Notes under the pieces: generated by a model
Told to the model about the DNA's origin: nothing
Databases searched by the model: none
Seen by the model: only the letters and a program-made list of their open reading frames with translations
Shown: positions 1,690-44,851 of the stretch, piece by piece
Layout: the number at the start of each line of letters is the position of its first letter
How positions within the stretch are numbered: the stretch's first letter is position 1
Translations under genes and position numbers: made by a program
Virus record (IMG/VR): IMGVR_UViG_2718218168_000002
Strand: one strand, 5' to 3'
Length of the DNA: 45,859 bases
DNA from: a virus
Lineage: Duplodnaviria; Heunggongvirae; Uroviricota; Caudoviricetes

Positions 1690-1704
1690 TGGTGTCCCCT
1701 GCAG
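1690..1704. repeat. Prophage attachment core (attR side): 15-bp direct repeat of the argW 3-prime end
   Basis: tggtgtcccctgcag at 1690-1704 is identical to 44776-44790 inside the tRNA-Arg gene; lies just outside torI. Confidence 0.75.
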
Positions 1705-1777
1705 ACATCTACTTGGCGCGGCAGGGGATTGATTGGAATGGTGTTTTTTAGATGTGAAAAATATTTTACCCGCTATT

Positions 1778-1978
1778 TTACTCATTGGCGCGGCTTAAGA
1801 GCTTATTTTTGAATTCACAATGGTCACGATATAACCATCTTGCTCGCCCGTGGATAACTTTGGCTTTAGGCAGGTCGCCGGACTTAATCCGGTCATAGAT
1901 GAAGGTTTTACCGAAGCCAGTATCGGCCATGATGAATTTCAAATCAACCAGTGAATCAGGCTGTAGTTCGTGTTGCAT
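1778..1978 (-). CDS. torI: Excisionase / recombination directionality factor TorI (AlpA-like)
   Basis: 66-aa ORF MQHELQPDSLVDLKFIMADTGFGK..., recalled as KplE1 TorI; sits at the prophage end opposite the integrase. Confidence 0.75.
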   Translation of the reverse strand: MQHELQPDSLVDLKFIMADTGFGKTFIYDRIKSGDLPKAKVIHGRARWLYRDHCEFKNKLLSRANE

Positions 1979-1997
1979 GAGTGCTATCTCCGAATAG

Positions 1998-2013
1998 GGA
2001 ATCGAACCTGCAA
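1998..2013. repeat. 16-bp copy of the argW T-arm segment upstream of torI
   Basis: ggaatcgaacctgcaa at 1998-2013 is identical to 44790-44805, the segment of argW contiguous with the att core. Confidence 0.6.
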
Positions 2014-2302
2014 ATCAGGTAATAAAAAACCGCCATCAGGCGCTTGGTGTTCTTTCAGTTCTTCAATTCGAATATTGGTTACGTCTGCATGTGCTATCTG
2101 TGCCCATAGCATCCAGTGGTCATAGCAGTCGTTGATGTTCTATGCTTCGATAACTCTGTTGAATGGCTCTCCATTCCATTCTCCTGTGACTCGGAAGTGC
2201 ATTTATCATCTCCATAAAACAAAACTCGCCGTAGCGAGTTCAGATAAAAGAAATCCCCGCGAGTGCGAGGATTGTTATTCACCTTTGACGGCAAGTTGCA
2301 GG

Positions 2303-2590
2303 TTAGCCACGACCTTCCTCCTTTGGCTTGTGAATTTGTATCGTCATGCCGCTTTGAGTGGTGACTACAACGACAGAACCAGGCTGAAGACTGTTAAGAT
2401 TGAATGCTTCGTAAAACGAAGCCAAGGCCAGCGCTTTTTTATTCTTTCGGTTCCACCAACGCCATCCATTGCTACAGGCTACACTGACAATCCACTGTCC
2501 ACTCCTGTAAGCCATATAAAACCAGATGAGCAAAACCTGAATGAATGCTATCCAGTCAATAATCGTATATTTCGCGAAGGAGACCATCAA
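2303..2590 (-). CDS. Hypothetical phage protein
   Basis: 95-aa ORF; its start overlaps the stop of the upstream gene by 4 nt (2587-2590), suggesting translational coupling. Confidence 0.45.
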   Translation of the reverse strand: MMVSFAKYTIIDWIAFIQVLLIWFYMAYRSGQWIVSVACSNGWRWWNRKNKKALALASFYEAFNLNSLQPGSVVVVTTQSGMTIQIHKPKEEGRG

Positions 2591-3372
2591 TTAACCTCCT
2601 GCGGCGGTTCCGGTAGAGGCATCCAGTACAAGGCGTTCCCTAACCACGATAAAGTGCCGTCGCTCAACTCCACGTATTCCTCTTGTACCTGTCCTGCCAT
2701 ATACTCGCCGTGCTTTGAATAAATTAAAATCCAATCATCTTGAGCGGGCATTCGCTCACTACAGCTTATCCAACCATCCGGAGTTACCGGAGAGTTGCCA
2801 CCCTGAACAGTAGGCATATCCGGACCTTTGCGAATCGCCCTGGCAAGATCGATTGGGTCGTCGTACAACCAGTCACCTGTTTGCGGATGATTGGCCTCTG
2901 CCTGTTGCGCCGCCCACTCCAGACCGTCTTTGTGTCCTTGAAGATAGTCCAGCGGTAACTCATCACTATTACTTACAGGTTCGGCCTGAAGCATGGCGGC
3001 GCGGCAGGCGTTCCAGCCAGCTGTTCGCCCAAGCGCGTAAACTTCAGATGGCTCAAGATAATCAATGTCATGCCCGTCCTCATCGTCGTTCTCAGGTAAT
3101 GCAGCAGGTACTACCGGTACTGGCGGAGCGGCGTAGACCTCAATAATTCCATTATCAATAGGCCATTCTCCATCCTTGAGATAGTCACTTGTGCCGTCAA
3201 CTTGCTGTTCTGCAATGTGGAAAGCGCCTATTGGTTTTGCTTCCAGCGATGCCAGCGCAATCCGTGCCAGCTCTTCCGCTTCTTCTGCTGGCAGTACAAC
3301 GTTGCTACCAGGTCCGTATGTTTCGCGCCACTCCTTGATTGTCAGCAGTCGCTCTTTGGTAATAGTGGTCAT
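2587..3372 (-). CDS. Hypothetical phage early protein (possible DUF551-like C-terminus)
   Basis: 261-aa ORF in the leftward early operon; C-terminal WISCSERMP motif recalls DUF551. Weak assignment. Confidence 0.5.
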   Translation of the reverse strand: MTTITKERLLTIKEWRETYGPGSNVVLPAEEAEELARIALASLEAKPIGAFHIAEQQVDGTSDYLKDGEWPIDNGIIEVYAAPPVPVVPAALPENDDEDGHDIDYLEPSEVYALGRTAGWNACRAAMLQAEPVSNSDELPLDYLQGHKDGLEWAAQQAEANHPQTGDWLYDDPIDLARAIRKGPDMPTVQGGNSPVTPDGWISCSERMPAQDDWILIYSKHGEYMAGQVQEEYVELSDGTLSWLGNALYWMPLPEPPQEVN

Positions 3373-3375
3373 GTG

Positions 3376-3525
3376 TTAGTCCTCTGTAGCAGGTGATACG
3401 CCGTAGTTGCATTCTTCATAGAATATGTCTCTGCCTATTTCTTCGGCATCCTCTGGCGTGTCTGCTTCAAACTCAACAACCTTGCAATCATTAAATCCTT
3501 CGATAGTCACGATGTACTTAGCCAT
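3376..3525 (-). CDS. Small hypothetical protein
   Basis: Internal ATG of track ORF 3376..3606, preceded by AAGGAGAG Shine-Dalgarno; starts 2 nt after the upstream stop. Confidence 0.4.
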   Translation of the reverse strand: MAKYIVTIEGFNDCKVVEFEADTPEDAEEIGRDIFYEECNYGVSPATED

Positions 3526-3526
3526 A

Positions 3527-4126
3527 TCACTCTCCTTTGATGCGAATGCCTGCGGCGCGTGGCACATTAACTTCCACGATGCGCACAGTTGGTTTGTACA
3601 TCTCAATCGCTGTCAGCCAGTCAGCGCCGGTCATATGCTTTTCTGCATCGCCATTAGTCCATTGAACCGGCACACCAATAGCTTTCATCGCAATTTCTAT
3701 TTCCCCGGCAATGGCGCTTTTCCCGCAACCAGTAAAACCAGAGACAACGACAAGAACTTCGCCTTTGGCTGGTTTTATTTCCCGTGCTTCCAGTTCAGCA
3801 ATACGCTTACTCCCATCCGAGATAACACCTTCGTAATACTCACGCTGCTCGTTGAGTTTTGATTTTGCTGCCTCCAGTTCGTCCAGTAGTGCAATCACAT
3901 CAGGGGCACTGTCATCAACTACTGTTACGCGTGATTTTTCATAATGCTCGTCGGCAAGTGTTCGACCAATTTTGAAATCTCCATCACCACCATAACTGGA
4001 GCAGGCATAAGTGACATGTGCTCCAGATATACGCTGTATTGACATTTCCTCGCCACAAACAGAGCATTCAGGTACTGGCTTAGGTGAATAACGTTCCCGT
4101 AGCGCCTGATAATCAATCTTGCTCAC
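3527..4126 (-). CDS. Ea22-like early protein (hypothetical)
   Basis: 199-aa ORF with an N-terminal Cys cluster and a coiled-coil-like middle, as in ead/Ea22-family proteins of lambdoid early-left regions. Confidence 0.5.
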   Translation of the reverse strand: MSKIDYQALRERYSPKPVPECSVCGEEMSIQRISGAHVTYACSSYGGDGDFKIGRTLADEHYEKSRVTVVDDSAPDVIALLDELEAAKSKLNEQREYYEGVISDGSKRIAELEAREIKPAKGEVLVVVSGFTGCGKSAIAGEIEIAMKAIGVPVQWTNGDAEKHMTGADWLTAIEMYKPTVRIVEVNVPRAAGIRIKGE

Positions 4127-4178
4127 TGGTTGCCCCCTGCTTTTCTGCCTTCAACACCATGTGCGAACCATCATCCAG

Positions 4179-4367
4179 CTACCACGCGATCTCACCACCT
4201 TCAGCCATAACCAGTCGCCACACCAATTGAGCAGCCTCATTGGTAACATCACGACCTGGATCATTGCCAACGCGCATACGCCCACCTTCAACATCGCGCA
4301 TTTTTGCCAGCATGATAGTTTTTGATAGCGGTGAAAAACCAAGCTGTAGTCGTGCTGAATTACTCAC
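4179..4367 (-). CDS. Small hypothetical ORF
   Basis: 62-aa ORF in a head-to-tail chain of small leftward ORFs; no recognisable motif. Confidence 0.3.
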
Positions 4368-4549
4368 TGGTTGCCTCCTTTGCGCAACATCGCATTCAGA
4401 TATTTGTTTTTATTCACTGATGGAAAAGAATTTCTCTTAAGCAATTCCTCTCTCGATGGCATTGGCTTTACGCGTTGGCGAATAATCATTTCTGCCGGAA
4501 GAATGCCGGGATTGTATGCAAGTCCTCTCATGGTAAATTCCTCAGTCAT
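4364..4549 (-). CDS. Small hypothetical ORF
   Basis: Internal-start version of track ORF 4364..4564; start ambiguous. Confidence 0.3.
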
Positions 4550-4838
4550 TACTGATAGCGCCATAGCGTGAGCGGTAATTACGCAGGCGCGGGTCGATAT
4601 ATTCAGGGAATTTGTCTATTGTCGCTTTTCGCAACGGTCGCATTGCTGTTTCGTTTGTTCGGTCCCTCTCATCTTTTAACGCGAGCTGTATATCGCGTCG
4701 GTACATCCGTTCTGCTTTTGTTTCTGGTGTCAGGGCAATAAACGTGTCGAAATTGTTTTTGATATTTTCCAGCACCTCCGCCTTGGAGCTACCGGAGCAG
4801 TTGCGCGGGTCATCCGCACCATACAGAGGCGCTGGCAT
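4542..4838 (-). CDS. Hypothetical phage protein
   Basis: 98-aa ORF in the leftward operon, immediately downstream of the DUF669-like gene. Confidence 0.4.
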
Positions 4839-4861
4839 AATGGGAGCCTTATTTTCAGTAA

Positions 4862-5449
4862 TCAGAAAGGAGGGTAATCGTTCTGGCTGTAACCATAATC
4901 ATCTGCATGATTCTGGATTACGTTTTTAGAGCGATTGTCTTTATCTTTGAGACTGGCAACCATGTTGGCGATAGTTTCTGGTTGCTTGCCTTCCGCCTTT
5001 TCTTTAAGGGTTTGACCAGTTTGTGCAATAAACGGGATGCGTATTTCCATCTGGTAGCTGTCTGCGCCAGTCTTTTTGTTTGTGGTTAATACTTTCTGGA
5101 GCACCAACCCGATTTTCTTTCCATGAAATTCAGGTGCAACAAATTTACTGACGGAAATCATATGTTGCGTTAACTGCCCAATCCCGGCACACCCCATCAT
5201 GGCGTGAACGACATTTGCGCCAAATTTGTTTTCCGTTCCGTCATTTTTCTGAACGCAGACGCTAAGATATTGGATTTTACGTCCGTCGTCGGATTCGCCA
5301 GAAAACTCAATAAATTTGGCTCCTTTTTCTGATTGCTTTAGTTCTGCTTCAGTAATGGTAATGATATGAGCGCCAGTTTCGTTAATAAAACCACCTTGCC
5401 CTGCTGTCAGTGCTGCTTCTTCGTTATAAGTAAAAATCACGTTGCTCAT
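4862..5449 (-). CDS. DUF669-like ssDNA-binding protein with SSB-like acidic C-terminal tip
   Basis: 195-aa ORF ending in DYPPF (compare the SSB DDDIPF tip); overlaps the upstream ATPase gene by 4 nt, the usual Sak4/DUF669 pairing. Confidence 0.5.
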   Translation of the reverse strand: MSNVIFTYNEEAALTAGQGGFINETGAHIITITEAELKQSEKGAKFIEFSGESDDGRKIQYLSVCVQKNDGTENKFGANVVHAMMGCAGIGQLTQHMISVSKFVAPEFHGKKIGLVLQKVLTTNKKTGADSYQMEIRIPFIAQTGQTLKEKAEGKQPETIANMVASLKDKDNRSKNVIQNHADDYGYSQNDYPPF

Positions 5450-6126
5450 GCGGCGTTTTCCTTAATTTGATGAACATTATTGATGCCGTAGTAATCACAA
5501 ACAGTGGCATCGACAAAAGAGAGATCGTTATCAATCTCATTGGAATCAAACATTCCCATTGGGGATTTAACAGTGTCTGCACCGTTGTTTTTCGTGGTGA
5601 AAAAGAACTGGTCATCACGGGTAAGGGTGCGAAGAACTATAGTAAACATGCCTTCGACAGTGATTTTCTCGTCCAGCATTTTGCCGATAGTTTTCATTTT
5701 CACGCGCCCCATAGGGGTTTCTTCTGTGTGCGCAAGAAAATAGACTCTCAGGTCATCAGGTGCATCCTGTGCAGCCTTAATCACCTCCCATGCGTGGCGG
5801 CCTATCTCAGTAAATTTATCAAACGATTTTTCTTCTGAGCGGCGCATAAACTCATTGCTCATCACATACTGGAAGTCATCAACAATAACGATTCTTTTCC
5901 CGTATTCGTGAGCACGCTTAATTACGGCAACTATTACGTCCCATTTGTCAGTGGTAACTACGGTTCCTTTTTTTGCTCTGGCATCCCATGCCAGCCATTC
6001 TTTTGATTTAAAAGGTAGCGGCTTGCCTATTGGTTTTATAAGTATTGCTTCCTCTGGATTGATATTTCTCATGCTGGTTGATTTTCCGGTGCCAGATTCA
6101 CCGAGTATTAATGTCGCAGTTCCCAT
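5446..6126 (-). CDS. Sak4-like AAA_24 ATPase (phage recombination)
   Basis: 226-aa ORF with N-terminal Walker A GESGTGKST and a Walker B-like IVIVDD; occupies the position of lambda Red. Confidence 0.6.
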   Translation of the reverse strand: MGTATLILGESGTGKSTSMRNINPEEAILIKPIGKPLPFKSKEWLAWDARAKKGTVVTTDKWDVIVAVIKRAHEYGKRIVIVDDFQYVMSNEFMRRSEEKSFDKFTEIGRHAWEVIKAAQDAPDDLRVYFLAHTEETPMGRVKMKTIGKMLDEKITVEGMFTIVLRTLTRDDQFFFTTKNNGADTVKSPMGMFDSNEIDNDLSFVDATVCDYYGINNVHQIKENAA

Positions 6127-6134
6127 AATTTGCC

Positions 6135-6335
6135 TCAGAATGGTAATTCGGATGGGACGGAAAGAAATTCGCGCTCATTCATGCGCTCTCTTTGAGCCTG
6201 CCATAAACAAAGTTGTTTCTTTGATTTATCTCCCGCTTTACGCCAGTAACGAGCCTCAGCAATGTGATATTCTCTTTTTAATCGACTTAATTCTGGAGTT
6301 TTCGCCAGTTCTACCGGAATCATTTTGACCTCCAT
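6135..6335 (-). CDS. Hypothetical phage protein
   Basis: 66-aa ORF directly downstream of kil; overlaps the kil end by 16 nt. Confidence 0.35.
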   Translation of the reverse strand: MEVKMIPVELAKTPELSRLKREYHIAEARYWRKAGDKSKKQLCLWQAQRERMNEREFLSVPSELPF

Positions 6336-6433
6336 TTTCTGTAGGCTTCGATGGCCTCACGAAACATCTTTTCATCGCCAATAAAAGTGGCGATAGTGAA
6401 TTTAGTCTGGATAGCCATAAGTGTTTTATCCAT
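6320..6433 (-). CDS. kil: Kil-like host-killing protein
   Basis: 37-aa product MDKTLMAIQTKFTIATFIGDEKMFREAIEAYRKW from the internal ATG of track ORF 6320..6559; recalled as lambda Kil-like; directly follows cIII as in lambda. Confidence 0.5.
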   Translation of the reverse strand: MDKTLMAIQTKFTIATFIGDEKMFREAIEAYRKWRSK

Positions 6434-6566
6434 TTTTGGGAACTCCTGGCTGATTAAGTACGTCGATGAGTCGTTTCCATCCGTCACGTAATTTGCGGGT
6501 GATTCGTTCAAGTAAAGATTCGGAAGGGCAGCCAGCAACAGGCCACCCTGCAATGGCATATTGCAT
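6426..6566 (-). CDS. cIII: CIII-like protease inhibitor
   Basis: 46-aa ORF below the track cutoff: MQYAIAGWPVAGCPSESLLERITRKLRDGWKRLIDVLNQPGVPKNG, matching recalled lambda CIII; AAGGAG Shine-Dalgarno upstream. Confidence 0.65.
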   Translation of the reverse strand: MQYAIAGWPVAGCPSESLLERITRKLRDGWKRLIDVLNQPGVPKNG

Positions 6567-6645
6567 GGTGTGCTCCTTATTTATACATAACGAAAACGCC
6601 TCAAGTGAAGCGTTATTGGTATGCGGTAAAGCCGCGCTCAGGCGG

Positions 6646-6894
6646 CTACTCTATTTCTTCTTCGAATGATTTTATTAGCCGGTCAATAACATCATCTGTT
6701 TCAATATCATTTCCGTCTGATTGCTTTAATACGTCTATTGATTCTGCTGCGGTAAATTCCATCGCTGTGAGAAACTCGACAATTGCACACTCAACGACAT
6801 GTCGTTCTTCATCTGTACGACATGAGATAAAAGAGCATTTAATTGCTGTTATTACTTTTTGTTTAAGTTCTGCAGGATAATCAGTTTTTATCAT
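6646..6894 (-). CDS. Hypothetical phage protein
   Basis: 82-aa acidic ORF in the pL operon, with GGAG before the ATG. Confidence 0.45.
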   Translation of the reverse strand: MIKTDYPAELKQKVITAIKCSFISCRTDEERHVVECAIVEFLTAMEFTAAESIDVLKQSDGNDIETDDVIDRLIKSFEEEIE

Positions 6895-6907
6895 CGTTTA
6901 CTCCGTC

Positions 6908-6935
6908 AAAAAAAATCGCCCTCACACTGGAGGGC
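6908..6935 (-). terminator. Rho-independent terminator in the leftward operon (tL-like)
   Basis: Minus strand reads GCCCTC-cagtgt-GAGGGC followed by an 8-nt T run (plus-strand A run 6908-6915). Confidence 0.55.
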
Positions 6936-7071
6936 AAAGAAGATTTCCAATAATCAGAACAAGTCGGCTCCTGTTTGGTTACGAGCGACATTGCTCCGTG
7001 TATTCACTCGTTGGAATGAATACACAGTGCAGTGTTTATTCTGTTGTTTATGCCAAAGATAAAGGCCACTA

Positions 7072-7169
7072 TCAGGCAGCTTTGTTGTTCTGTTTACCAA
7101 GTTCTCTGGCAATCATTGCCGCCGCTCGTAATGCCCACACCATTGATTCTTATCAATAGTCGCAGTCAT
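7072..7169 (-). pseudogene. ral: ral (restriction alleviation) remnant with internal deletion and frameshift
   Basis: N-terminal frame gives MTATIDKNQWCG then a stop after 18 codons; a second frame gives WALRAAAMIARELGKQNNKAA. Both match recalled lambda Ral termini; about 100 nt of the middle are missing. Confidence 0.45.
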
Positions 7170-7293
7170 ACGGATAGTCCTGGTATTGTTCCATCACATC
7201 CTGCGGATGCTCTTCGAACTCTTCAAATTCTTCTCCCATATCTCACCTCAAATAAGTGGTTTGCTGCGAAAGTAAATACGCTTAAGTTACCTG

Positions 7294-7431
7294 TTATTTA
7301 TCCCACCAAGTTCCGTATCTATCTATCCAGTTACACCAATCATCGACACTCCATTTTGTTGTGTCGCATTTTGGCAACTGGCATGAATATCTACCTTCTT
7401 TGTAAAGTCGGCGTTTGACTTTCTTGAGCAT
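7294..7431 (-). CDS. Small Cys-containing protein immediately downstream of N
   Basis: 45-aa ORF MLKKVKRRLYKEGRYSCQLPKCDTTKWSVDDWCNWIDRYGTWWDK, with GAGGTGAG Shine-Dalgarno; below the track length cutoff. Confidence 0.35.
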   Translation of the reverse strand: MLKKVKRRLYKEGRYSCQLPKCDTTKWSVDDWCNWIDRYGTWWDK

Positions 7432-7439
7432 GGCTCACC

Positions 7440-7745
7440 TCAATCGTAATAAGCTGGAATTGATTTTCCGCGTTGCTTCTGGCGGCCTGAGCATGTCACA
7501 CCCATTTCACTGCGTGGCTTGCGGTAGTAAATGCGATTCTGTTTACTCTCGACTTCTTCTGCCTTCTTGCAGCGAAGGCTTCCGAGTGATGCTGCTTTAT
7601 CTGCTCTGACGCAACCAGAGAGCTTTAGCGCAATTTTTCGTGCCAGTCGCTGCTCTTGCATTGCCTGTTCACGTTGAGCCTGTCTGCGTGCTCTGCGGCG
7701 ATTTCTGGCGTTATCGTCAGCCAGATATGTAATGACTACTGTCAT
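7440..7745 (-). CDS. N: N-like transcription antitermination protein
   Basis: 101-aa basic ORF with an arginine-rich N-terminal motif (ARNRRRARRQAQRE) and C-terminus GVTCSGRQKQRGKSIPAYYD resembling lambda N; first gene downstream of pL. Confidence 0.7.
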   Translation of the reverse strand: MTVVITYLADDNARNRRRARRQAQREQAMQEQRLARKIALKLSGCVRADKAASLGSLRCKKAEEVESKQNRIYYRKPRSEMGVTCSGRQKQRGKSIPAYYD

Positions 7746-7852
7746 GTTGACCTCCGATGATTGATTTTGGCGGTGACGCGCCGGGTGCTTATCTTCCGGT
7801 TGCCGTCGTGCAGCTGCACTTCACGTCACCCCAAAGCCAACTACTCTTTGGT

Positions 7853-7894
7853 TCCCGCATTTCGGCGGGACAATCCCATCAATGTTAAAGAGCC
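7853..7894 (-). promoter_or_regulatory. nutL-like site (boxA plus boxB hairpin)
   Basis: Minus strand reads GGCTCTTTAACA (boxA-like), a 12-nt spacer, then hairpin TCCCGC-cgaaat-GCGGGA; the same pair recurs downstream of cro. Confidence 0.55.
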
Positions 7895-7940
7895 TGCCAA
7901 TCTGTTCCGTTTGGCTTCCAGCTTCCTGCTGATGTGTTTA

Positions 7941-8003
7941 GTATCACCGCTAGTGGTATGCGTGTCAACACCGCCAGAGATAATTTATCACCGCAGATGG
8001 TTA
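7941..8003 (-). promoter_or_regulatory. pL promoter with oL1-oL3 operators (lambda-type)
   Basis: Minus strand TTGACA (7964-7969), 17-nt spacer, GATACT (7941-7946); operator-like 17-mers tatcaccgctagtggta, caacaccgccagagata and tatcaccgcagatggtt. Confidence 0.8.
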
Positions 8004-8160
8004 TCTGTATGTTTTTTATATAGATTTATTTTTTGCAGGGTTGTATGGATTGGGAAGGTGATCGAGAGATCTGAATTGCGATGTTTAGTGAGTTGTATCT
8101 ATTAATTTTCAAATAAATACAATTGGTTATGTGTTTTTAGGTGTGGCGATCGTGAGGCAA

Positions 8161-8186
8161 AGAAAACCCGGCGCTGAGGCCGGGTT
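8161..8186 (-). terminator. Rho-independent terminator ending the cI operon
   Basis: 8-bp stem aacccggc/gccgggtt with a 6-nt loop, then a T-rich tail on the minus strand; 6 nt after the stop of 8192..9064. Confidence 0.5.
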
Positions 8187-8191
8187 GTATA

Positions 8192-9064
8192 TTATTTAAT
8201 TTCTTTTTCCGGTAAATACATTGTCATTTGAACAGGTTTCTTTCCATAGTGTTGAGCAACTCGACTTCTTAGCTCATGCATGGTGTCGCATGTTTTTGCG
8301 ACCCCAATAACCTCCCAGCACCTTGATACAAGCTGCCTTACACCTAGGTTCTCGGTTAACTGTCTATGCCAGTGAACTCCTGCCGCAGGCTTGTTTTCTT
8401 TAAGATATTTAGCCACATCTTCGTCAAGAGTGTCATAAATTAACTCTATAACTAATTTCCCCCACCATTTGGGCCTTGATTGCAATGGGGTACTCCATCC
8501 TGTCAATCTACCAAATTCTTCCCATAACTCATCAGGAAATGTTTTTTCCCATGCTCTTAGTTCCTCAGCGATGAACGCCCTGAGTTTTACTTGGAGAGCA
8601 TCCTCTGCGCGCTCATACTGATACCCAGTAGCCTCATCAATTAGAGCATCTAACCCAGTCCTGGTTAAACCTGCTGTTAATACAGCACATTTAATTGCTA
8701 TTTCTCGCTGTCTATCTGTCAATGGCGCGCCTTTGTATAGCGCCTGTACATAGCCGCGACAAATCAATTCAAATTGCTCAGTCTTAAGTCCTTGGCTTTT
8801 AAATTGGGTTCCTGGTATGGAAAACTCTATGAGTTCGGCCAGGACTAAGTCTTTGTCTATAAAGCCATTAAGTGAGCTAACGCCAATAAATTTAGCCAGG
8901 TCTCCTGACTCCGCATTGGCAATTGCTTTTACAGTTGCTCGCAAAGCTATAACACGATGTCCAGTGTCAAGCACATAGCAATCAATACTTTCACCACCTA
9001 AGTCGATCTTCCCCTTCCATTTTGCGAATGGGGATGGTAATTGCTGTAAATCATCATGTTCCAT
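8192..9064 (-). CDS. Uncharacterised cargo protein in the rexAB slot of the immunity operon
   Basis: 290-aa product from the internal ATG (MEHDDLQQLPSPFAKWKGK...) 32 nt after the cI stop; the full track ORF 8192..9160 would overlap cI by 65 nt. No similarity to RexA/RexB recalled. Confidence 0.6.
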   Translation of the reverse strand: MEHDDLQQLPSPFAKWKGKIDLGGESIDCYVLDTGHRVIALRATVKAIANAESGDLAKFIGVSSLNGFIDKDLVLAELIEFSIPGTQFKSQGLKTEQFELICRGYVQALYKGAPLTDRQREIAIKCAVLTAGLTRTGLDALIDEATGYQYERAEDALQVKLRAFIAEELRAWEKTFPDELWEEFGRLTGWSTPLQSRPKWWGKLVIELIYDTLDEDVAKYLKENKPAAGVHWHRQLTENLGVRQLVSRCWEVIGVAKTCDTMHELRSRVAQHYGKKPVQMTMYLPEKEIK

Positions 9065-9095
9065 TAATTGAATTACCCTTTTTTGCTGCGTTGAA

Positions 9096-9812
<717 letters not shown>

Positions 9813-9819
9813 TTAAATC

Positions 9820-9885: not shown

Positions 9886-9900
9886 GATTGCATGTACTAA

Positions 9901-10110
<210 letters not shown>

Positions 10111-10117
10111 GTAACAC

Positions 10118-10516: not shown

Positions 10517-10538
10517 CAACATCCAACGAGGTAATTAT

Positions 10539-36654: not shown

Positions 36655-36956
36655 TGACAATTCAGGAAATTCCGCTGACAGCGGACAACCAGCAGTTCAG
36701 CATCGTCCTGGGTGGTGTCACCTGGCGGATTAGCATCATATGGCGCGATCCTTACTGGATTATGGACCTGCAGAACGACAGAGGAGAGCCGGTAATCTCC
36801 GGTATTCCTCTCGTCACTGGCGCTGATCTGCTGGCGCAGTACGCCTGTATGGGACTTGGTTTTAAGCTGTTGGTGGTCTGCGATGACAACACACAGGATT
36901 ATCCCACGAAAACTGACCTGGGCGGGCGCAGTCATTTGCTGGTATCAACGGAGTAA
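36654..36956 (+). CDS. Hypothetical tail protein
   Basis: 100-aa ORF with a start/stop overlap to the upstream gene. Confidence 0.4.
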   Translation: MTIQEIPLTADNQQFSIVLGGVTWRISIIWRDPYWIMDLQNDRGEPVISGIPLVTGADLLAQYACMGLGFKLLVVCDDNTQDYPTKTDLGGRSHLLVSTE

Positions 36957-36958
36957 GC

Positions 36959-38020: not shown

Positions 38021-38023
38021 GCA

Positions 38024-38365
38024 ATGAGGGGTATCATTTTTCTGTTAGCTGTCTTTTCTGCGTGCAGCGTGTGGGCGGATGGCTTCACGGTTAAATGCGG
38101 TGGCTACACTATGGTTGCAAACCAGGGCGAGTTATCGACAATTAACGGTGAAAGAGTTACCTCTCAAAAAATCACCGAACTGGGTACCAATGGTTTGAAA
38201 GTAGACATGGGGATTATGCCTGCCAAAGACGGTAACAACTACGGCTTTGAATACATTCGTCGCCCTGGTACCGAAACGCGATTCCTGAATGTGCAACTGC
38301 TGCAGAACAGCATGGATGCGCCGAAAATCATCGGTTCCTTTCCATGCAAAAAGATTGTTGATTAA
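38024..38365 (+). CDS. Secreted or lipoprotein moron (uncharacterised)
   Basis: 113-aa ORF with signal peptide MRGIIFLLAVFSACSVWA (possible lipobox FSAC); unlike the flanking structural genes. Confidence 0.5.
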   Translation: MRGIIFLLAVFSACSVWADGFTVKCGGYTMVANQGELSTINGERVTSQKITELGTNGLKVDMGIMPAKDGNNYGFEYIRRPGTETRFLNVQLLQNSMDAPKIIGSFPCKKIVD

Positions 38366-38418
38366 TCACTCGTAATTATAATGTGATACTTCTACTTTCA
38401 CGATAAGGAATTTGTCGC

Positions 38419-38658
38419 ATGTTCGGATTTGATAAATTAATAACTCCAAAAATCATCAACGTTCTGTATGGCATCACAATGTTACTTCTGGTTGTTGCCG
38501 CCATTATAACGTTTGTTAATGGGAAGGCTGCTGGCGCTTTAGTGCTTTTGTTATGTGCTGTATTTTGCCGAATATTTTTTGAGTGCATCATGGTTTCATT
38601 TAAAAACAATGAGTATCTTCGCCGAATAGCTGAAGCGTTAGAAGCAAACAAGCAGTAA
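38419..38658 (+). CDS. Small inner-membrane protein moron (two predicted TM helices)
   Basis: 79-aa ORF with own AAGGAA Shine-Dalgarno; two hydrophobic stretches; followed by a terminator. Confidence 0.5.
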   Translation: MFGFDKLITPKIINVLYGITMLLLVVAAIITFVNGKAAGALVLLLCAVFCRIFFECIMVSFKNNEYLRRIAEALEANKQ

Positions 38659-38674
38659 TGAAACTTCAATAATG

Positions 38675-38698
38675 AACCCGCCACCCGGCGGGTTTTTT
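38675..38698 (+). terminator. Rho-independent terminator after the tail-region moron
   Basis: Stem aacccgcc/ggcgggtt with loop accc, overlapping a TTTTTT run. Confidence 0.6.
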
Positions 38699-38717
38699 GC
38701 TTTCTGGAGCCTACTAA

Positions 38718-39473
38718 ATGGCAGTATCTGACCAGACCCGCAGCGGCGACCTTGCCGAAACATTCAAATCTGAACGGGAAACAACAAAGAACCAGATCCG
38801 TGTCGCCTTGCCTGGCATTGTTCAGTCATTCGATCCCGACGCGGTGACGGCGGTTGTGCAGCCAGCTATCCGTTCGGTTGAAAAGGATAACGACGGTAAC
38901 CGCATTACCAAAAATTACCCGTTGCTGGTGGATGTGCCAGTGGTATTTCCGCGCGGTGGAGGCTGTACGTTGACTTTTCCGGTTAAAGCCGGGGATGAAT
39001 GCCTGGTGATTTTCGCCGACCGCTGCATCGATTTCTGGTGGCAGAACGGCGGGGTGCAGGAGCCTGTCGACGACCGGGTGCATGATTTATCGGATGCTTT
39101 CTGTATCGTCGGGCCGCAGTCTCAGGCGCAGAAAATAAGCGGAATAAGCACCAGTGGCGCGCAGCTGCGTACTGATGATGGCGCTGCGTTTGTGGAAGTG
39201 GCCGCAGGCCATAATATCACGGTTAAAACTCCCGGCGCGTTGACGGCGACAGCAGAAGGAGGAACCACGATCACATCACCCACCATCACGCTAAACGGCA
39301 ACGTGACAATAAACGGGAATCTCTCTCAGGGGATGGGCGAAAGCGGCGGCACCGCGACGATGCTTGGCCCTGTCACGGTGACTAACGATGTAAAAGCTGG
39401 TGGTAAGAGCCTGATGACGCACACGCACGGCGGAGTACAGACCGGCGGCGGTAACACAGGAGCGCCTAACTGA
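38718..39473 (+). CDS. Baseplate spike protein (gpV-like)
   Basis: 251-aa ORF heading a V-W-J-I-H-G-like gene order; Gly/Thr-rich C-terminal region with HTHGG. Confidence 0.55.
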   Translation: MAVSDQTRSGDLAETFKSERETTKNQIRVALPGIVQSFDPDAVTAVVQPAIRSVEKDNDGNRITKNYPLLVDVPVVFPRGGGCTLTFPVKAGDECLVIFADRCIDFWWQNGGVQEPVDDRVHDLSDAFCIVGPQSQAQKISGISTSGAQLRTDDGAAFVEVAAGHNITVKTPGALTATAEGGTTITSPTITLNGNVTINGNLSQGMGESGGTATMLGPVTVTNDVKAGGKSLMTHTHGGVQTGGGNTGAPN

Positions 39474-39826
39474 TGCGATACAGACGTGAAGACGCCGATG
39501 GCGATTATACCTTTGGCAGCGGTGATGACACCTGGCTGATTAACTCACCGGAGGCCGTGGCGCAGGCGGTAAAAACGCGATTCGAATTGTGGTATGGGCA
39601 ATGGTTTCTCGACACCACCGAGGGGACTCCGTGGATCCAGTCCGTGCTGGGCAGGCAAAAACCGGAAACTTACAACCTGGCGATCAGAAAACGCATTCTG
39701 GAAACGCGGGGCGTTAAATCAATCCTCTCTTTCAATACGACGGTGGATACCACGACCCGACGTGTCATGTTTTCCGCTGAAATCGACACTCTCTATGGAA
39801 TAACGACTGTTACATCGGAGGCGTAA
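39473..39826 (+). CDS. Baseplate wedge protein (gpW/gp25-like; candidate)
   Basis: 117-aa ORF, similar in size to P2 W, between the V-like and J-like genes. Confidence 0.45.
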   Translation: MRYRREDADGDYTFGSGDDTWLINSPEAVAQAVKTRFELWYGQWFLDTTEGTPWIQSVLGRQKPETYNLAIRKRILETRGVKSILSFNTTVDTTTRRVMFSAEIDTLYGITTVTSEA

Positions 39827-41025
39827 TGGCTCTGAACCTTGATTCTCTCGGTTTATCTGCAAAGGTAACCGCAGAGGGGATCAGTGCGCCTGATTATCAG
39901 ACGATACTCAGCACCCTGATTAGCTATTTTCAGCAGATTTATGGCAGTGATGCCTACCTCGAACCGGACAGCAAAGACGGCCAGATGGTGGCTCTGATGG
40001 CGCTGGCGATTCATGATGCCAATAATATGGCGATAACTGTCTACAACTGTTTTTCACCGGCAACCGGCTATGGGGCTGCACTGACCAGCAACGTGAAAAT
40101 AAATGGTATTTCACGTAAAGGCGCGACGAACTCTACGGTTGATTTGCTTCTTACAGGAACTGCCGGAACAACCATCATTAATGGCAGCGTGAAAGACAGT
40201 AATAATGTGATATGGCGTTTGCCTGCTTCAGTGGTGGTCGGCGTGGATGGTACAGTGATGGTGACTGCAACATGTTCCGTCAGTGGTGCAGTGGCGGCGC
40301 TGGCTGGAACTATCACTGAAATAAATACGCCAACCCGTGGCTGGGTTTCGGTAACTAATCCTGCTGCGGCTACCGTGGGCACTCCGGCAGAAACTGACGC
40401 GGAGTTACGTATCCGCCAGTCGCAAAGTGTTGCGTTGCCATCAATAACCCCATTTGAAGCACTGGATGGTGCTGTTTCTAATGTTACCGGTGTAACCCGC
40501 CACAAACTCTATGAAAACGATACTGGTTCGGAGGACGGTAACGGGTTACCGCCACACTCTGTTGCTGTAATTGTGGATGGCGGTGATGTAACGGATATTG
40601 CTCAGGCTATCAGAGGGAATAAAGGCCAGGGGACAGCCACTCACGGTACAACATCCGTTACGGTTCCGGATAAATACGGCAATCCCCATGTAATCAAATT
40701 CTCGCGTTCCAGTGATGTGCCTGTTTATGCCCGGATTAAATTAAAAGTTTTTACGGGTTATACCTCACAGATAGGGCAGCAGATCCAGCAGGCTATTTCC
40801 GACTATATCAATAGTCTGATGATTGGTAATTCGGTCCTTTTAAGTCGCATTTACTCACCGGCGAATCTTGGCGTGGTGAGTGGCGGGAATGCACGCTATT
40901 ACGATATTCAGGAACTGACGATTGGGAAATCCCCGGGGGCTTTGTCGTCATCAAACATTGATATCAGATATAACGAATCTGCGTCCTGTACCCCGGAAAA
41001 TATCGTTATAACGGTGGAGTCATGA
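39826..41025 (+). CDS. Baseplate J-like protein
   Basis: 399-aa ORF at the J position of the baseplate cluster. Confidence 0.6.
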   Translation: MALNLDSLGLSAKVTAEGISAPDYQTILSTLISYFQQIYGSDAYLEPDSKDGQMVALMALAIHDANNMAITVYNCFSPATGYGAALTSNVKINGISRKGATNSTVDLLLTGTAGTTIINGSVKDSNNVIWRLPASVVVGVDGTVMVTATCSVSGAVAALAGTITEINTPTRGWVSVTNPAAATVGTPAETDAELRIRQSQSVALPSITPFEALDGAVSNVTGVTRHKLYENDTGSEDGNGLPPHSVAVIVDGGDVTDIAQAIRGNKGQGTATHGTTSVTVPDKYGNPHVIKFSRSSDVPVYARIKLKVFTGYTSQIGQQIQQAISDYINSLMIGNSVLLSRIYSPANLGVVSGGNARYYDIQELTIGKSPGALSSSNIDIRYNESASCTPENIVITVES

Positions 41026-41702
41026 GCAAATACACCGAACTAATCACGAACTACCACGCCACCAAACCTAAATTTCTTGCACATGTTGATCTGATGACCC
41101 GGCCGCTTATTGATGTTGCGGCTGCCACCAGAGGGCTGATTACTGCATTTGATATTGACTCTGCGGTTGGTGTGCAACTTGACATTCTGGGATTGTGGAT
41201 CGGACGTAGCCGTGTTGTCAGCCAGCCTATTTCAGGTGTCTATTTCAGCTGGGATACCGACGGGCTTGGATATGATCAGGGTGTATGGCAGGGGCCATAC
41301 GATCCTGATTCCGGATACATGTACCTCAGCGATGAAACTTATCGTGTCATCCTTAAAGCGAAGATTGCGATTAATAACTGGGACGGACGGAATGATTCGC
41401 TTCCGGCAATTCTTGACGCGGCAACAGCAGGATCCGGACTGCGAATGCAGATAGTCGATAACCAGGACATGACGATATCGGTCTGGGTCTTTCCTGATAC
41501 TGATATTTCAGATGTATCGCGTGAGTTAATTGCGACAATTAAACAGGGGTATCTAACAGTAAAAGCCGCCGGGGTATGGGCGGGGAGCATTGAAACACCT
41601 TCGGTGGAAACTCCATCGGAAGGCTCTAAATTTTTTGGTTTTGATATGGATAACGAATTCATCAGTGGTTTTGATGTAGGGGCATGGGGAGTATTACTCT
41701 GA
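41022..41702 (+). CDS. Baseplate/tail protein I-like
   Basis: 226-aa ORF between the J-like and tail-fiber genes. Confidence 0.5.
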
Positions 41703-42535
41703 TGGCGAAAAATGACTTTAAAGCGTTTGCAACTGATCGAAATGCCAATGTTATGTCGCAGGAAGAATGGGAAGCGTTGCCTGCGCTTATATCCGGATTT
41801 ACAGCAGGGAAAGCATCCAGTGCGCAAGTCAATAAGGTTATTCGGCAGGCCAGCTTTATTGCTGCAGCTCTGGCCCAGTTTGTAAGTGATAAAACGCAAC
41901 GGGATGTGCTTGATAATGGTGATCTGCCCGGTTTTGTTGAATTGCTGGGATCGGGGTTTGCTGTTGAATACCTGAGCCGCAAGAATCCGTTTGGTGATAT
42001 CAAATCGGATGGCACGGTGAAAACGGCTCTCGAAAACCTTGGTTTGGGAGAAGGCTCTGCATTACCGGTTGGGGTGCCTGTTCCGTGGCCTTCAGCCACT
42101 CCGCCGACAGGCTGGCTGAAATGCAATGGTGCGGCTTTTTCTGCTGAAGAATACCCGGAACTGGCAAAGGCTTACCCGACCAATAAATTGCCTGATTTAC
42201 GTGGTGAGTTTATTCGTGGCTGGGATGATGAACGTGGTGTGGATAGTGGGCGAACTCTGCTTTCATCGCAAGGAGATGCTATTCGAAACATTACTGGCGG
42301 TTTTGGTCAGTTGCGCGTAAACAGCGAAATTAATGCAATTGTCGATGTTCAAAGTGTGAGTGGGGCTTTTTACGGAGGTACCTCAGTCCGGAATAACATC
42401 AATGTGTCTATGACATACGCTAATGACCGAAAAATCCGACAAGATGTTCACTTCTCGGCGGCAAATGTTGTTCCAACAGCAAATGAAAATCGTCCACGTA
42501 ACATCGCCTTTAATTATATTGTGAGGGCTGCATGA
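41702..42535 (+). CDS. Tail fiber protein with tail-collar motif
   Basis: Internal ATG overlapping the upstream stop; conserved collar-like segment [52 protein letters not shown]. Confidence 0.7.
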
Positions 42536-43137
42536 TGAATAAAGCTGTATTAAATAGTGAACTCATTGCCATAAAAGCGGGAGACATTATCATTTATAAT
42601 TATGATGGTGAAACGCGTGAATATATTTCTACATCAACTGAATATCTCGCTGTCGGCGTCGGTATCCCGGCATGTTCTTGTTTAGATGCACCAGTTACAC
42701 ATAAAGCTGGTTATGCAATCTGCCGTTCTGCAGATTTTAACTCATGGGAATATGTGCCAGACCATCGCGGTGAAATCGTCTTTAGCACCGAAACAGGAGA
42801 ATCAAAAGAAATCACAGCTCCGGGTGATTACCCTGATAATACAACCACTATCGCCCCGTTAACACCATACGATAAATGGGATGGTGAGAAATGGGTGACG
42901 GATACCGAAGCACAGCATAGCGCCGCAGTAGATGCAGCAGAAGCACAGCGCCAGTCACTGATTGATACTGCAATGGCTTCAATCAGTCTGATTCAGCTGA
43001 AATTACAGGCCGGACGGAAGTTGACGCAGGCAGAAACAACCCGACTTAACGCCGTGCTGGATTACATTGACGCGGTGACGGCAACAGATACCAGCACCGC
43101 GCCGGATGTCATCTGGCCTGAACTGCCGGAGGCGTAG
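42532..43137 (+). CDS. Tail fiber assembly protein
   Basis: 201-aa ORF directly after the tail fiber gene with a start/stop overlap; C-terminal motif [17 protein letters not shown]. Confidence 0.7.
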
Positions 43138-43291
43138 GCCATTCAATATCTGGCGCACCGGAAGTATCGACCAGCTCCAGTGCGTCCAGTTGACATCCTC
43201 CACGCCCTGAAGGACGGGGTTTTACGGCGCACCGGATAAATCCAAATGGAGTTTCGGGAGATAAATGAAACCGCAGCCACGTCGTATGCAA
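43109..43291 (-). pseudogene. Inverted C-terminal fragment of a tail fiber assembly gene
   Basis: Minus-strand ORF ending [21 protein letters not shown], homologous to the C-terminus of the plus-strand Tfa; overlaps its 3-prime end tail-to-tail. Confidence 0.4.
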
Positions 43292-43457
43292 GAACTTGCT
43301 GCGGTTCGCTGGTGAAGTGTCGATGGTGAGAGTATTGAATGATTTCCAACTGTTGCCAATTTTACTATGTTTTCAGTAGAACACTTAGACAAAACTGAGG
43401 CACACAAATCTTTGCACTGGATTGCAAGGCTTTGTGTTATTCGATAGTTAATGCGGA

Positions 43458-44615
43458 TCACTCCACCTTTTCATCAATCCAGTCCGCCCACCACTGCATC
43501 ATTTCTCTGCGCTTATCTAGATACTGAGCATGGTTGTAAATACCGCGCACAGATCCGCCGTTGGCATGTGCCAGTTGCACCTCAATCGCGTCAGCAGGCC
43601 ATTCGTGCTCGTTCATAATCGTGCTAAATTCATGCCTGAATCCGTGACCGCTTTCCAGACCCTCATAGCCGATTTGTTTGATCACAAGTAGAACCGCGTT
43701 CTCGCAGATTGGCTTCTTCTTATCGTTGCGCCCGGCAAAAACAAACTCTGATACTGGTTTGGTGATGGAGCTTAGCGTAGTGAGAAGTTCAACCACCTGG
43801 TCTGACATCGGGACCACATGAATTTTGCGTCCCTTCATCACACTGGCGTCGATGGTGATAATCCTGTTTTCAAAATCGACGTTCTTCCATAGCATGGAAC
43901 GAAGCTCTTTCGTTCTTAGGGCTGTGTAGCGTAAAACTTTGGTCGCAATGAGCGATACGATACTTCCTGAAAATGTTGCCAGTGCTTTGTTGAATGCCGG
44001 GATCTGGTCTGCAGGAAGAAACGGGAAGTTCTTCTTGCGGTATCCCTTCATGGCGTCTGCAAGGTCAGGTGCCGGGTTGTATTTAGCCCTTCCGGTGACA
44101 ATAGCGTAACGGAAAACTTCGCCGCATCTTCTGCGGGCTTTGTTGGCTCGCTCCATTGCACCGCGATCTTCAAATCTGCGGATTACTTCCAGCAGTTGCA
44201 TCGGCTCAATATCCTGAATTTCAAGGCTGCCGATGATAGGTAAAATGTCGTCATCAAACATTTTTGCAAGTTCATTTGCATAGCCTACTGACCAGACTTG
44301 CTTCTTGTGCTCGTACCATTCCTTGTAAATGGCGCTAAAGGAATTGTTGTTAGACGAAGCCTTTTTCGCTTTTACCGGATCGATGCCAACCGAGATGTCT
44401 TTCCTAGCGGTCCATGCTTTATCCCTTGCCTCCTGCAAAGTCATAAGCGGATATTTTCCGACGGTCAGGATTTTCTCTTTACCGTCAATCTTGTAGCGAA
44501 GCTGCCATACCTTTTTCCCGGATACAGGAACATAAAGGTACAGGCCATTACCATCGAGAAGGCGGTATGGTTTTTCTTTCGGCTTTGCTGCTTCAATCTG
44601 CTTAACGGTGAGCAT
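43458..44615 (-). CDS. intS: Tyrosine integrase (P4/KplE1 IntS type)
   Basis: Start placed at MLTVKQIEAAKPKEKPYRL (track ORF extends to 44651); C-terminal catalytic region HGFRHEF...HANGGSVRGIYNHAQY; adjacent to argW. Confidence 0.85.
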   Translation of the reverse strand: MLTVKQIEAAKPKEKPYRLLDGNGLYLYVPVSGKKVWQLRYKIDGKEKILTVGKYPLMTLQEARDKAWTARKDISVGIDPVKAKKASSNNNSFSAIYKEWYEHKKQVWSVGYANELAKMFDDDILPIIGSLEIQDIEPMQLLEVIRRFEDRGAMERANKARRRCGEVFRYAIVTGRAKYNPAPDLADAMKGYRKKNFPFLPADQIPAFNKALATFSGSIVSLIATKVLRYTALRTKELRSMLWKNVDFENRIITIDASVMKGRKIHVVPMSDQVVELLTTLSSITKPVSEFVFAGRNDKKKPICENAVLLVIKQIGYEGLESGHGFRHEFSTIMNEHEWPADAIEVQLAHANGGSVRGIYNHAQYLDKRREMMQWWADWIDEKVE

Positions 44616-44775
44616 GGGTAAAAATCCGGTGGGTAAAATTATTTTATCCACTTTTTACCCGTCATGGAGTGCGGCTGTCAACGATCTGACGCGAACCATG
44701 ACGAACCGTGAATATACGGAAGGCTTGATATTCAGGGGATTTTGCGGACTGGTACGGATGGGAGCGAACTGATAA

Positions 44776-44851
44776 ATGGTGTCCCCTGCAGGAATCGAAC
44801 CTGCAATTAGCCCTTAGGAGGGGCTCGTTATATCCATTTAACTAAGAGGAC
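44776..44851 (-). tRNA. argW: tRNA-Arg (anticodon CCU)
   Basis: Minus-strand cloverleaf: acceptor GTCCTCT/AGGGGAC, D stem GTTA/TAAC, anticodon stem AGCCC/GGGCT with loop CTCCTAA, T arm GCAGG-TTCGATT-CCTGC, discriminator A, CCA. Confidence 0.9.

Follow-up and report, generated by a model that had tools for sequence, protein, structure and literature searches.

A lambdoid prophage at argW with lambda-type immunity and a SEN34-type contractile-tail virion module

What kind of element lies between the Escherichia coli-type genes at the two ends of the viral record IMGVR_UViG_2718218168_000002, a stretch of 45,859 nucleotides that we analysed whole (the window), and to which phages do its virion genes belong? 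A sequence-only reading had seen here a highly mosaic prophage that combined lambda immunity and lysis genes, KplE1 integration and non-lambda replication with a Mu-like head and a P2-like tail. We conclude that the window holds a single, complete-looking temperate lambdoid prophage at argW, put together from known modules by the usual recombination, a reading to which we assign a probability of about 0.88. Its architecture, in which a prophage of the lambdoid kind in argW carries virion genes of the SEN34 type, is known, and its exact combination is unrecorded in the collections searched. The joining of lambdoid early genes to a contractile-tail module has already been described for SEN34, an inducible phage with a lambda-like early region and myovirus morphology (2017, PMC5261728), and an E. 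coli phage related to vB_EcoM-683R1 and SEN34 figures in a survey of urinary coliphages from 2026 (PMC12945033).

We find one 43.1-kb prophage between two copies of the KplE1 att core, with E. coli-type chromosome on both sides: a cscB-like MFS transporter gene in the left flank (1-1248) and yfdC in the right flank (44927-45859). The direct repeat TGGTGTCCCCTGCAG, at 1690-1704 and 44777-44791, forms the prophage ends, and these are exactly the ends of the one prophage (1690-44790) that had been proposed. In KplE1 (CPS-53), a cryptic prophage of strain K-12, the att core is the 16-nucleotide sequence CTGCAGGGGACACCAT (PMC2951348); it is matched at 16/16 positions on the tRNA side (44776-44791) and at 15/16 on the left side (1689-1704), where 1690-1704 is the attL core copy. 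The tRNA gene is argW, tRNA-Arg(CCT), on the minus strand (44777-44851), and its 3' end (44777-44791) is the attR core. Adjoining it is the tyrosine integrase gene intS (43458-44651, minus strand), with a promoter/att arm region beside argW; a probable start at 44615 gives a protein of 385 amino acids, 382 of which are identical in K-12 IntS (99%), and the DNA from 43387 to 45859 is 96.8% identical to K-12. The opposite prophage end carries torI (1778-1978, minus strand), the gene for the recombination directionality factor (excisionase): its reading frame has 66 amino acids and matches K-12 TorI at 65/65 (100%), and the DNA from 1690 to 2028 is 97.3% identical to CPS-53. Integrase and excisionase genes stand at opposite ends in KplE1 and in phage HK620 as well. 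The earlier assignment of integration to the KplE1 type is borne out, and excision is of that type too. The phage would accordingly enter the 3' end of argW by means of a KplE1/HK620-type IntS, and its excision would need TorI from the other end.

Some 300 bp into the prophage (1998-2013), and immediately upstream of torI, lies a 16-nucleotide copy of an argW T-arm segment, GGAATCGAACCTGCAA, the counterpart of which (44791-44806) adjoins the att core within the tRNA gene. Because the copy near torI is also found in K-12 CPS-53, in HK620 and in the other argW prophages that we fetched, it is a conserved part of the att/torI region; in HK620 it overlaps an annotated promoter and a CII site upstream of the torI homologue. 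A related prophage in E. coli Br_190_kylling (NZ_CP182387.1, locus 1-49501) begins at the csc/torI end and ends beside ybhB-bioA, the lambda attB region, which stands where intS-argW is expected; this layout suggests a chromosomal rearrangement between two prophages.

The virion genes, all on the plus strand, begin with a block for packaging and the head (22776-29744), in which Pfam recognizes TerS (Terminase_2), TerL, the portal (Phage_portal_3), a minor head protein with a Phage_Mu_F domain, a DUF2213 protein in the scaffold position, a cement protein and the major capsid protein (PF09950). The cement protein is of the family of E217 gp24 and Pam3 gp6 (Phage_cement, Pfam), and the packaging and head proteins are 79-96% identical in amino acid sequence to those of SEN34. 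There follow the head-tail connectors (29786-31845), comprising a DUF4054 protein, a neck protein, an adaptor and a tail terminator; the contractile tail (31849-36067), with sheath (DUF3383), tube (KPP10_Orf10), an assembly chaperone and a tape measure that includes a lytic-transglycosylase part; and the baseplate (36067-41702), with a Dit-like protein, a Pam3_gp18 plug, a hub whose match to E217_GP41 lies below the curated Pfam cut-off, a spike with a GpV apex motif, a W-like wedge, Baseplate_J and DUF2612. The tail fibre gene and that for its Tfa chaperone (41684-43137) close the series. By BLASTP, 27 of 27 virion genes, from TerL to the fibre, have colinear orthologues in SEN34 (65-96% amino acid identity), and their lengths are equal to those of the SEN34 genes or within a few residues of them, except that a start-codon difference gives the Mu-F-domain protein 257 amino acids versus 202 in SEN34. 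The blastn alignment of the virion DNA to vB_EcoM-611R5 spans 23140-42054 at about 95% identity.

These data bear on the proposal that a Mu-type head module and a P2-type tail module were set on a lambdoid backbone, with a junction of head and tail between unrelated structural modules. The Pfam signals in common with Mu or P2 that speak for it are the Phage_Mu_F domain, Baseplate_J and the GpV apex motif only, together with three weak BLASTP similarities, the sole matches to Mu or P2 at E <= 1e-3 in a search of the pooled references: TerL to Mu gp28 (29%), the J-like protein to Mu gp47 (25%) and the spike to P2 gpV (26%, E = 1e-4). The Phage_Mu_F domain is, however, also present in many non-Mu phages, and the Baseplate_J, gpV and gpW families are common to most contractile tails. 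In the minor head protein the domain is recognized at E = 1.9e-17, yet the protein has no BLASTP similarity to Mu gp30. When the prophage was compared by blastn with P2 and with Mu, 0 nt aligned. Pairwise BLASTP of seven virion proteins (portal, capsid, Mu-F-domain protein, sheath, tube, J and W) against Mu and P2 yielded nothing below E = 0.1, so that the portal and capsid are without a match to Mu gp29 and gpT, and the sheath and tube without one to P2 FI and FII; in an all-against-all BLASTP, Mu gpI had no match under 1e-3.

The same proteins find their relatives elsewhere. A phmmer search of the PDB matched the sheath to 7kh1 (2.7e-40) and to Pam3 (8hdr, 1.7e-23), the capsid to Pam3 (4.7e-19), and the portal to Pam3 (2.6e-37) and E217 (1.9e-14); sheath, capsid and portal thus all match one solved phage, Pam3, and XM1-type and E217 chains are also matched. 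Gene order is a further point of difference from P2: the order here is sheath-tube-chaperone-tape measure-baseplate-fibre, whereas P2 has the baseplate genes V-W-J-I-H-G upstream of FI-FII-E-T-U-D. Bearing in mind also that head and tail genes are colinear and co-conserved in SEN34 and vB_EcoM-611R5, and that the portal, capsid, sheath and tube belong to the families Phage_portal_3, PF09950, DUF3383 and KPP10_Orf10, we consider a Mu/P2 chimera very improbable; it is refuted at the level of family membership. Neither the Mu-like head nor the P2-like tail of the sequence-only reading survives. To judge from orthology and gene order, head and tail are one colinear module rather than a Mu head joined to a P2 tail, which removes one supposed junction. 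The practical value of this result is a corrected annotation, in which the virion genes are labelled as SEN34/Pam3-type rather than as Mu or P2.

Two boundaries of this module fall inside genes. The N-terminal two-thirds of terS (22776-23140) is unrelated in DNA to vB_EcoM-611R5, and because the junction, at about 23140, falls inside the gene, it suggests a swapped DNA-recognition domain together with its packaging site. The tail fibre joins a SEN34/611R5-type N-terminus to a lambda/HK97 stf-type C-terminus from about 42055 onwards, and the segment that encodes the fibre C-terminus and Tfa (42055-43365) is of the stf/tfa type, with 86% DNA identity to HK97; the receptor-binding tip has been exchanged independently of the remaining tail. 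A stretch of 340 bp in this region (42847-43189) shares 94.5% identity with the remnant of tfaS/yfdK in K-12 CPS-53.

Could the window instead contain two adjacent elements, with the remains of a lambdoid phage on the left and, on the right, a separate contractile-tail prophage or tailocin cluster? The G+C content does rise, from values of about 0.45-0.50 among the early genes to values of about 0.52-0.58 among the virion genes, and in vB_EcoM-611R5 the same virion module is coupled to an early region of quite another kind, which encodes a DNA polymerase and a helicase. On the other hand, we count one att pair, one integrase, one recombination directionality factor and one repressor; the virion genes come after Q, S, R and Rz on the same strand, with no att site or integrase between; and SEN34, E. 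coli Br_190 and other genomes have the same layout. We reject two adjacent elements in view of the one att pair, and rate them the least probable of the arrangements considered here. A tailocin is likewise rejected, terminase, portal and capsid being present.

A single lambdoid prophage is also what the order of the genes describes. As judged from the map of open reading frames, PHROGs and Pfam, a leftward early operon with N is followed by cI between the OL and OR operators and by the rightward order cro-cII-replication-nin-Q-lysis-virion genes, and there are segments 89-97% identical to lambda, HK97, HK620 and mEp043, near-identity of the sort through which such phages can recombine; by gene order and sequence, the prophage belongs to the lambdoid group. 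At its centre is the lambda immunity core that had been proposed from cI, cro and cII, and it stands up in detail. The repressor gene cI (9096-9809, minus strand) encodes a protein identical to lambda cI at 232/237 amino acids (98%), the product of cro (9910-10110, plus strand) is identical to that of lambda at 65/66 (98%), and that of cII (10220-10516, plus strand) is 95% identical to lambda CII; an oop-like terminator lies within the gene, on the minus strand (10462-10492). Lambda operators OR3, OR2 and OR1 lie with pR (TTGACT-17-GATAAT) at 9820-9885, and OL1-OL3 with pL (TTGACA-17-GATACT) on the minus strand at 7940-8002; OR3, OR2, OL2 and OL3 agree with lambda at 17/17 positions and OR1 and OL1 at 16/17. 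The hexamers of pL and pR are those of lambda. At the sequence level, these repressor proteins and operators assign the prophage to the lambda immunity group (imm-lambda). In the lysogen, a lambda-type cI would act on the lambda OL and OR, and cI and Cro would form the switch. Lambda-type immunity can thus sit on a contractile-tailed virion of the SEN34 type, and if the prophage is inducible, lambda lysogens can be expected to repress the phage, and cells lysogenic for the phage to be immune to lambda.

The stretch of lambda-type DNA has sharp limits. The change from HK620-type to lambda-type DNA falls at about 7921-7934, right beside OL1, with 7554-7934 being 98.7% identical to HK620; on the other side, the 110 bp from the cro stop to the cII start (about 10109-10222) are identical to HK620, not to lambda. 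These flanks contain HK620-type boxB hairpins, that of nutL at 7850-7873 (minus strand; aligned to HK620 7641-7840, 98.7%) and that of nutR at 10143-10162 (plus strand), which has the same boxB. The gene for the antiterminator N (7440-7745, minus strand) is an intragenic chimera: residues 1-64 are of the HK620 type (98%) and residues 65-97 are lambda-N-like (61%). If lambda N is a guide, the N-terminal part would be the one that binds RNA. Because N 1-64, nutL and nutR are all of the HK620 type, the N-terminal part of N and both nut sites have moved as a set around the lambda immunity core; after induction, an HK620-type N would act on matching HK620-type nutL and nutR. With its two nut sites flanking the lambda core, N offers a compact case of co-inherited interacting parts.

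The replication module, which had been called non-lambda, is so: BLASTP finds no match to lambda O or P. Behind a small DUF2740 protein (phrog_1913; 10540-10682, plus strand) comes the gene for an initiator with an HTH_36 N-terminal domain (10679-11563, plus strand), inside which lie the iterons of the origin (10970-11140), about eight tandem 21-bp repeats of GGTGGGGCAGGAGCTGCCCGG, of which four are perfect. Where lambda has P, there is a gene for a primase-helicase of 626 amino acids with Toprim_2 and DnaB_C/AAA_25 domains (Pfam; 11671-13551, plus strand), after which there is a terminator (13581-13604). The C-terminal 141 amino acids of the initiator are 87% identical to the initiator of mEp043 and the primase-helicase is 99% identical to mEp043 gp55; both resemble one phage, and these parts, which must interact, have been co-inherited. 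The layout, with iterons within the initiator gene and then a helicase gene, is still lambdoid. We propose that the iteron-binding HTH_36 initiator and the Toprim/DnaB-like primase-helicase replace lambda O and P. The mosaic junction in the initiator gene falls at the iterons, a related locus encodes an initiator of 251 amino acids versus 294 here, and an exact-protein look-up of the initiator found no record.

Late control passes to a Q antiterminator of the Phage_antitermQ family, unrelated to lambda Q (19006-19527, plus strand). In the lysis cassette, on the same strand, S (20055-20378) and R (20362-20838) are 97% and 95% identical to lambda, as the earlier assignment of a lambda S-R-Rz cassette would have it; that assignment fails for Rz (20822-21283), which is 46% identical to lambda versus 76% to HK97. 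Rz1 is embedded in Rz as a reading frame with a lipobox (within 21018-21230, plus strand), and a terminator (21315-21337) follows the cassette. Between the lysis and packaging genes stand a gene for a KilA-N and P63C protein, 99% identical to HK97 gp73 and with a probable start at 21493, and then one for a phrog_875 protein (21415-22481, plus strand). We suggest that the non-lambda Q would turn on a single late operon, from S through the tail fibre chaperone, whose products would be a lambda-type holin and endolysin, an HK97-like spanin, a SEN34-type contractile-tail virion and a lambda/HK97 stf/tfa tip.

How far is this combination on record? We searched the INPHARED phage records, the complete RefSeq E. 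coli genomes (5,426) and eight sampled loci, and compared segments and coverage by blastn with 20 reference loci. Segmentation by best match among these 20 divides the prophage into more than 35 segments with different best matches, in line with the earlier description of lambda segments alternating with unrelated modules. The share of the prophage that aligns is 43.7% for vB_EcoM-611R5, 41.6% for SEN34, 19.1% for HK97, 18.9% for HK620, 15.7% for mEp043, 11.4% for lambda and 5.0% for CPS-53 of K-12. The genus rule is about 70% nucleotide identity genome-wide. With 11.4% aligned to lambda, the prophage falls outside the genus Lambdavirus, and with 41.6% aligned to SEN34 at about 76-88% identity, it falls outside Brunovirus by identity; the Brunovirus-type orthologous and colinear virion module is present, with 27/27 proteins in the same order.

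No phage record covers 80% of either half of the prophage, nor of any of four sub-regions of 3.6-6 kb, as expected from the earlier statement that no single reference phage represents it; a near-identical, already characterised phage was looked for among the phage records and not found. For the left half, no complete E. coli genome reaches 80% coverage (best 54%). At least 80% of the right half is present in 71 of the 5,426 E. coli genomes, where it is annotated with intS; the joining of lambdoid early genes to this contractile-tail module is found in these 71 complete genomes as well as in SEN34. Eight assemblies that encode an identical copy of the P63C protein found next to cI (see below) each contain a different mosaic, the best sharing 11.3 kb of the left 21.3 kb. 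Mosaicism of this extent is the usual state of lambdoid phages. Among lambdoid prophages a unique exact combination is the rule, and that the present one is unrecorded in the left half carries little information.

Module boundaries had been said to coincide with terminators and with start/stop overlaps. Strong terminator-like hairpins do stand at six junctions (8165-8186, 13581-13604, 16587-16603, 17467-17488, 21315-21337 and 38674-38695), and terminator-like sites are enriched in 1-16000 (36 observed versus 15.6 +/- 3.4 expected). There is, however, no enrichment in 16001-31000 (16 observed versus 16.3 expected), and the junctions in N, the initiator gene, terS and the tail fibre gene are intragenic. 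Start/stop overlaps of the ATGA type occur all along the operons; as they are present inside modules and at the joints of modules alike, they are no sign of a boundary, and this part of the claim has to be dropped.

Bearing in mind the observed gene content and order, identities, att sites, operators, nut sites and iterons, we infer that the prophage is inducible and makes myovirus particles. Another possibility is a defective (cryptic) lambdoid prophage, complete-looking but yielding no infective particles, in which some swapped parts are mismatched, the N-terminus of TerS and the packaging site being one candidate and the chimeric N another. Several observations lean that way and weigh against a functional phage of the kind we favour. 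The ral gene is a deleted remnant, though a non-essential one; N is an intragenic chimera; TerS has no BLASTP match to SEN34 TerS at E <= 1e-3, and the match to vB_EcoM-611R5 starts only inside terS; and argW of K-12 is also occupied by a defective prophage, CPS-53. Two further points tell against our reading: neither the phage records nor the complete E. coli genomes contain the exact module combination, so that no characterised phage vouches for the whole, and gene starts were picked by open reading frame and homology, without a gene caller. Set against a defective prophage are the full length of all essential functions, the matching of functionally linked parts, and the recovery of close virion-module relatives as phages (the vB_EcoM series), SEN34 itself having been recovered after mitomycin C induction (PMC5261728). 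On the map of open reading frames with PHROGs and Pfam assignments, no IS element or truncated essential gene was seen in the prophage. We therefore consider a defective prophage unlikely, if clearly less so than either of the two arrangements dealt with above.

The temperate lambdoid prophage that we favour would have arisen by recombination among co-resident phages or prophages, in which interacting partners stayed matched (N with nut, the initiator C-terminus with the helicase). It has little importance beyond annotation, but illustrates cleanly how lambdoid phages can exchange modules without parting the components that interact.

Among described phages, SEN34 (Brunovirus SEN34), vB_EcoM-611R5, vB_EcoM-683R1 and vB_EcoM-606R2 are likest to the prophage, with a lambdoid-style early/regulatory region and the same colinear virion module, save for the early region of vB_EcoM-611R5 noted above. 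SEN34 differs in having another immunity region and integrase, lambda-type O and P, exo/bet/gam, and lysis genes without a DNA match; with respect to SEN34 and the vB_EcoM relatives, the prophage also differs in the TerS N-terminus, the tail morons and the fibre tip. With lambda it has in common the gene order and regulatory logic, cI/cro/cII with their operators (95-98% at the amino acid level), kil, cIII, NinE, S and R. In contrast to lambda, the rexA-rexB slot holds a P63C gene, the N-terminal part of N and the nut sites are of the HK620 type, the initiator, helicase and Q are others, as are int, xis and att, exo/bet/gam are absent, and the virion has a contractile tail whereas that of lambda is a siphovirus virion.

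KplE1 and HK620 share with the prophage the IntS/TorI module, the argW core and the siting of the integrase and directionality-factor genes at opposite ends; KplE1 is a 10-kb remnant without a repressor (PMC2951348). HK620 also shares the Sak4/SSB-like recombination module, the N-terminal part of N and the nut sites, but is a P22-like podovirus with its own immunity. HK97 has in common the lambda-type cI/cro (97% DNA identity), the lysis cassette with the KilA-N/P63C gene (94% DNA identity), Roi-HNH-RusA and the stf/tfa tip, and mEp043 the primase-helicase (99%); HK97, mEp043, mEp234, mEp506 and HK446 differ in being siphoviruses with HK97- or lambda-type virions. The myophages Pam3, XM1 and E217 share families of sheath, portal, capsid, cement, plug (Pam3_gp18) and hub (E217_GP41), with PDB E-values of 1e-14 to 1e-40, but the likeness, seen at the level of protein families, is distant in sequence, and the hosts are unrelated.

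Of the remaining genes, the one beside cI is the best side lead. In the position that rexA-rexB have in lambda, on the same strand as cI and 31 nt downstream of it, is a gene for a P63C-domain protein of 290 amino acids (Pfam; 8192-9064, minus strand), which ends at the bidirectional terminator that closes the cI operon (8165-8186); we set its start at 9064, and homologues begin at about residue 31 of the long reading frame. In the assembly collection, 2,124 blocks have this very protein in their index, and in 8/8 loci examined its gene stands directly after that of a cI-type repressor; the order of repressor and then P63C is also found in the P22-like Salmonella phage SI8 and in the Streptococcus pyogenes prophage Javan515. 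The best 120 homologues are 73-90% identical across alpha-, beta- and gamma-proteobacteria, with Enterobacter, Pseudomonas, Burkholderiaceae, Delftia and Aureimonas among the hosts, a degree of identity over such a host range that is unusual for a phage accessory gene. A PADLOC scan of ten cargo proteins gave no credible match to a defence system and no match at all for the P63C protein; the only hits of the scan were weak ones, to PDC-S22 (E = 1e-4 over 30 residues) and to a homing-endonuclease model (E = 2e-3). The literature that we searched held no functional study of the P63C domain. We tentatively suggest, as a possibility with the odds against it, that the protein is a DNA-binding factor expressed in the lysogen, with a role either in the exclusion of other phages or interference with them, or in tuning the switch between lysis and lysogeny; the gene merits a defence or exclusion assay.

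The early-left arm lies on the minus strand. Its distal accessory genes (1984-4367) comprise phrog_676, DUF4752, DUF551, Ead/Ea22-like and small reading frames (PHROGs, Pfam), with two tandem terminators among them (2222-2273), and their DNA has short patches 91-97% identical to mEp043, to lambda 29103-29361 and to others. The recombination module (4364-6335; PHROGs) encodes a DUF2737 protein, an Abc2 anti-RecBCD protein, a DUF669 SSB-like protein, a Sak4-like ATPase and a phrog_1723 protein; the SSB-like protein and Sak4 are 98% and 100% identical to HK620 hkaK and hkaL, and the DNA of the module is 95.4% identical to HK620. The overlapping reading frames of kil and cIII follow (6320-6566; PHROGs), with CIII 98% identical to lambda and the kil/cIII DNA 94.3% identical to lambda 33228-33544. 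Beyond them are an anti-restriction-like gene (phrog_14587; 6646-6894) and the ral remnant with its internal deletion (6910-7264), with terminators in this region at 6595-6614 and 6916-6937. In the ral remnant, two lambda-like pieces (97% and 92%) lie on either side of the deletion, which by comparison with lambda ral comprises about 90-100 nt, and in E. coli Br_190 the same region is annotated as a frameshifted Ral pseudogene. Five short open reading frames with no family match, or a partial and weak one (2094-2294, 7032-7418, 7761-8105, 43143-43349 and 43222-43461), are probably not genes.

On the plus strand, the baseplate operon includes a moron slot (38024-38695) with a lipoprotein-like phrog_3443 gene, a DUF4282 membrane protein of 79 amino acids and a strong terminator; the equivalent slot holds a Phd/Doc toxin-antitoxin pair in the E. 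coli Br_190 prophage and other small genes in SEN34. The nin region (13628-19027, plus strand) encodes phrog_5903, NinB, an HNH protein, a Dam methylase, a NinC-like PAPS reductase, NinE, the Ant moron, Roi, a second HNH protein (YbcO-like), RusA and phrog_3871, and its best phage records are those of the Stx phages 2851 and Nil2, with 58% coverage at best. The antirepressor moron (16496-17488, plus strand) has the typical form, in which a gene (16770-17450) for an ORF6N and P22_AR_C protein is flanked by two terminators and served by a promoter-like site of its own, and the 1-kb segment that contains it (16501-17503) is unmatched in all 20 reference loci. It stands beside a second antirepressor-like gene, Roi (17519-18247).

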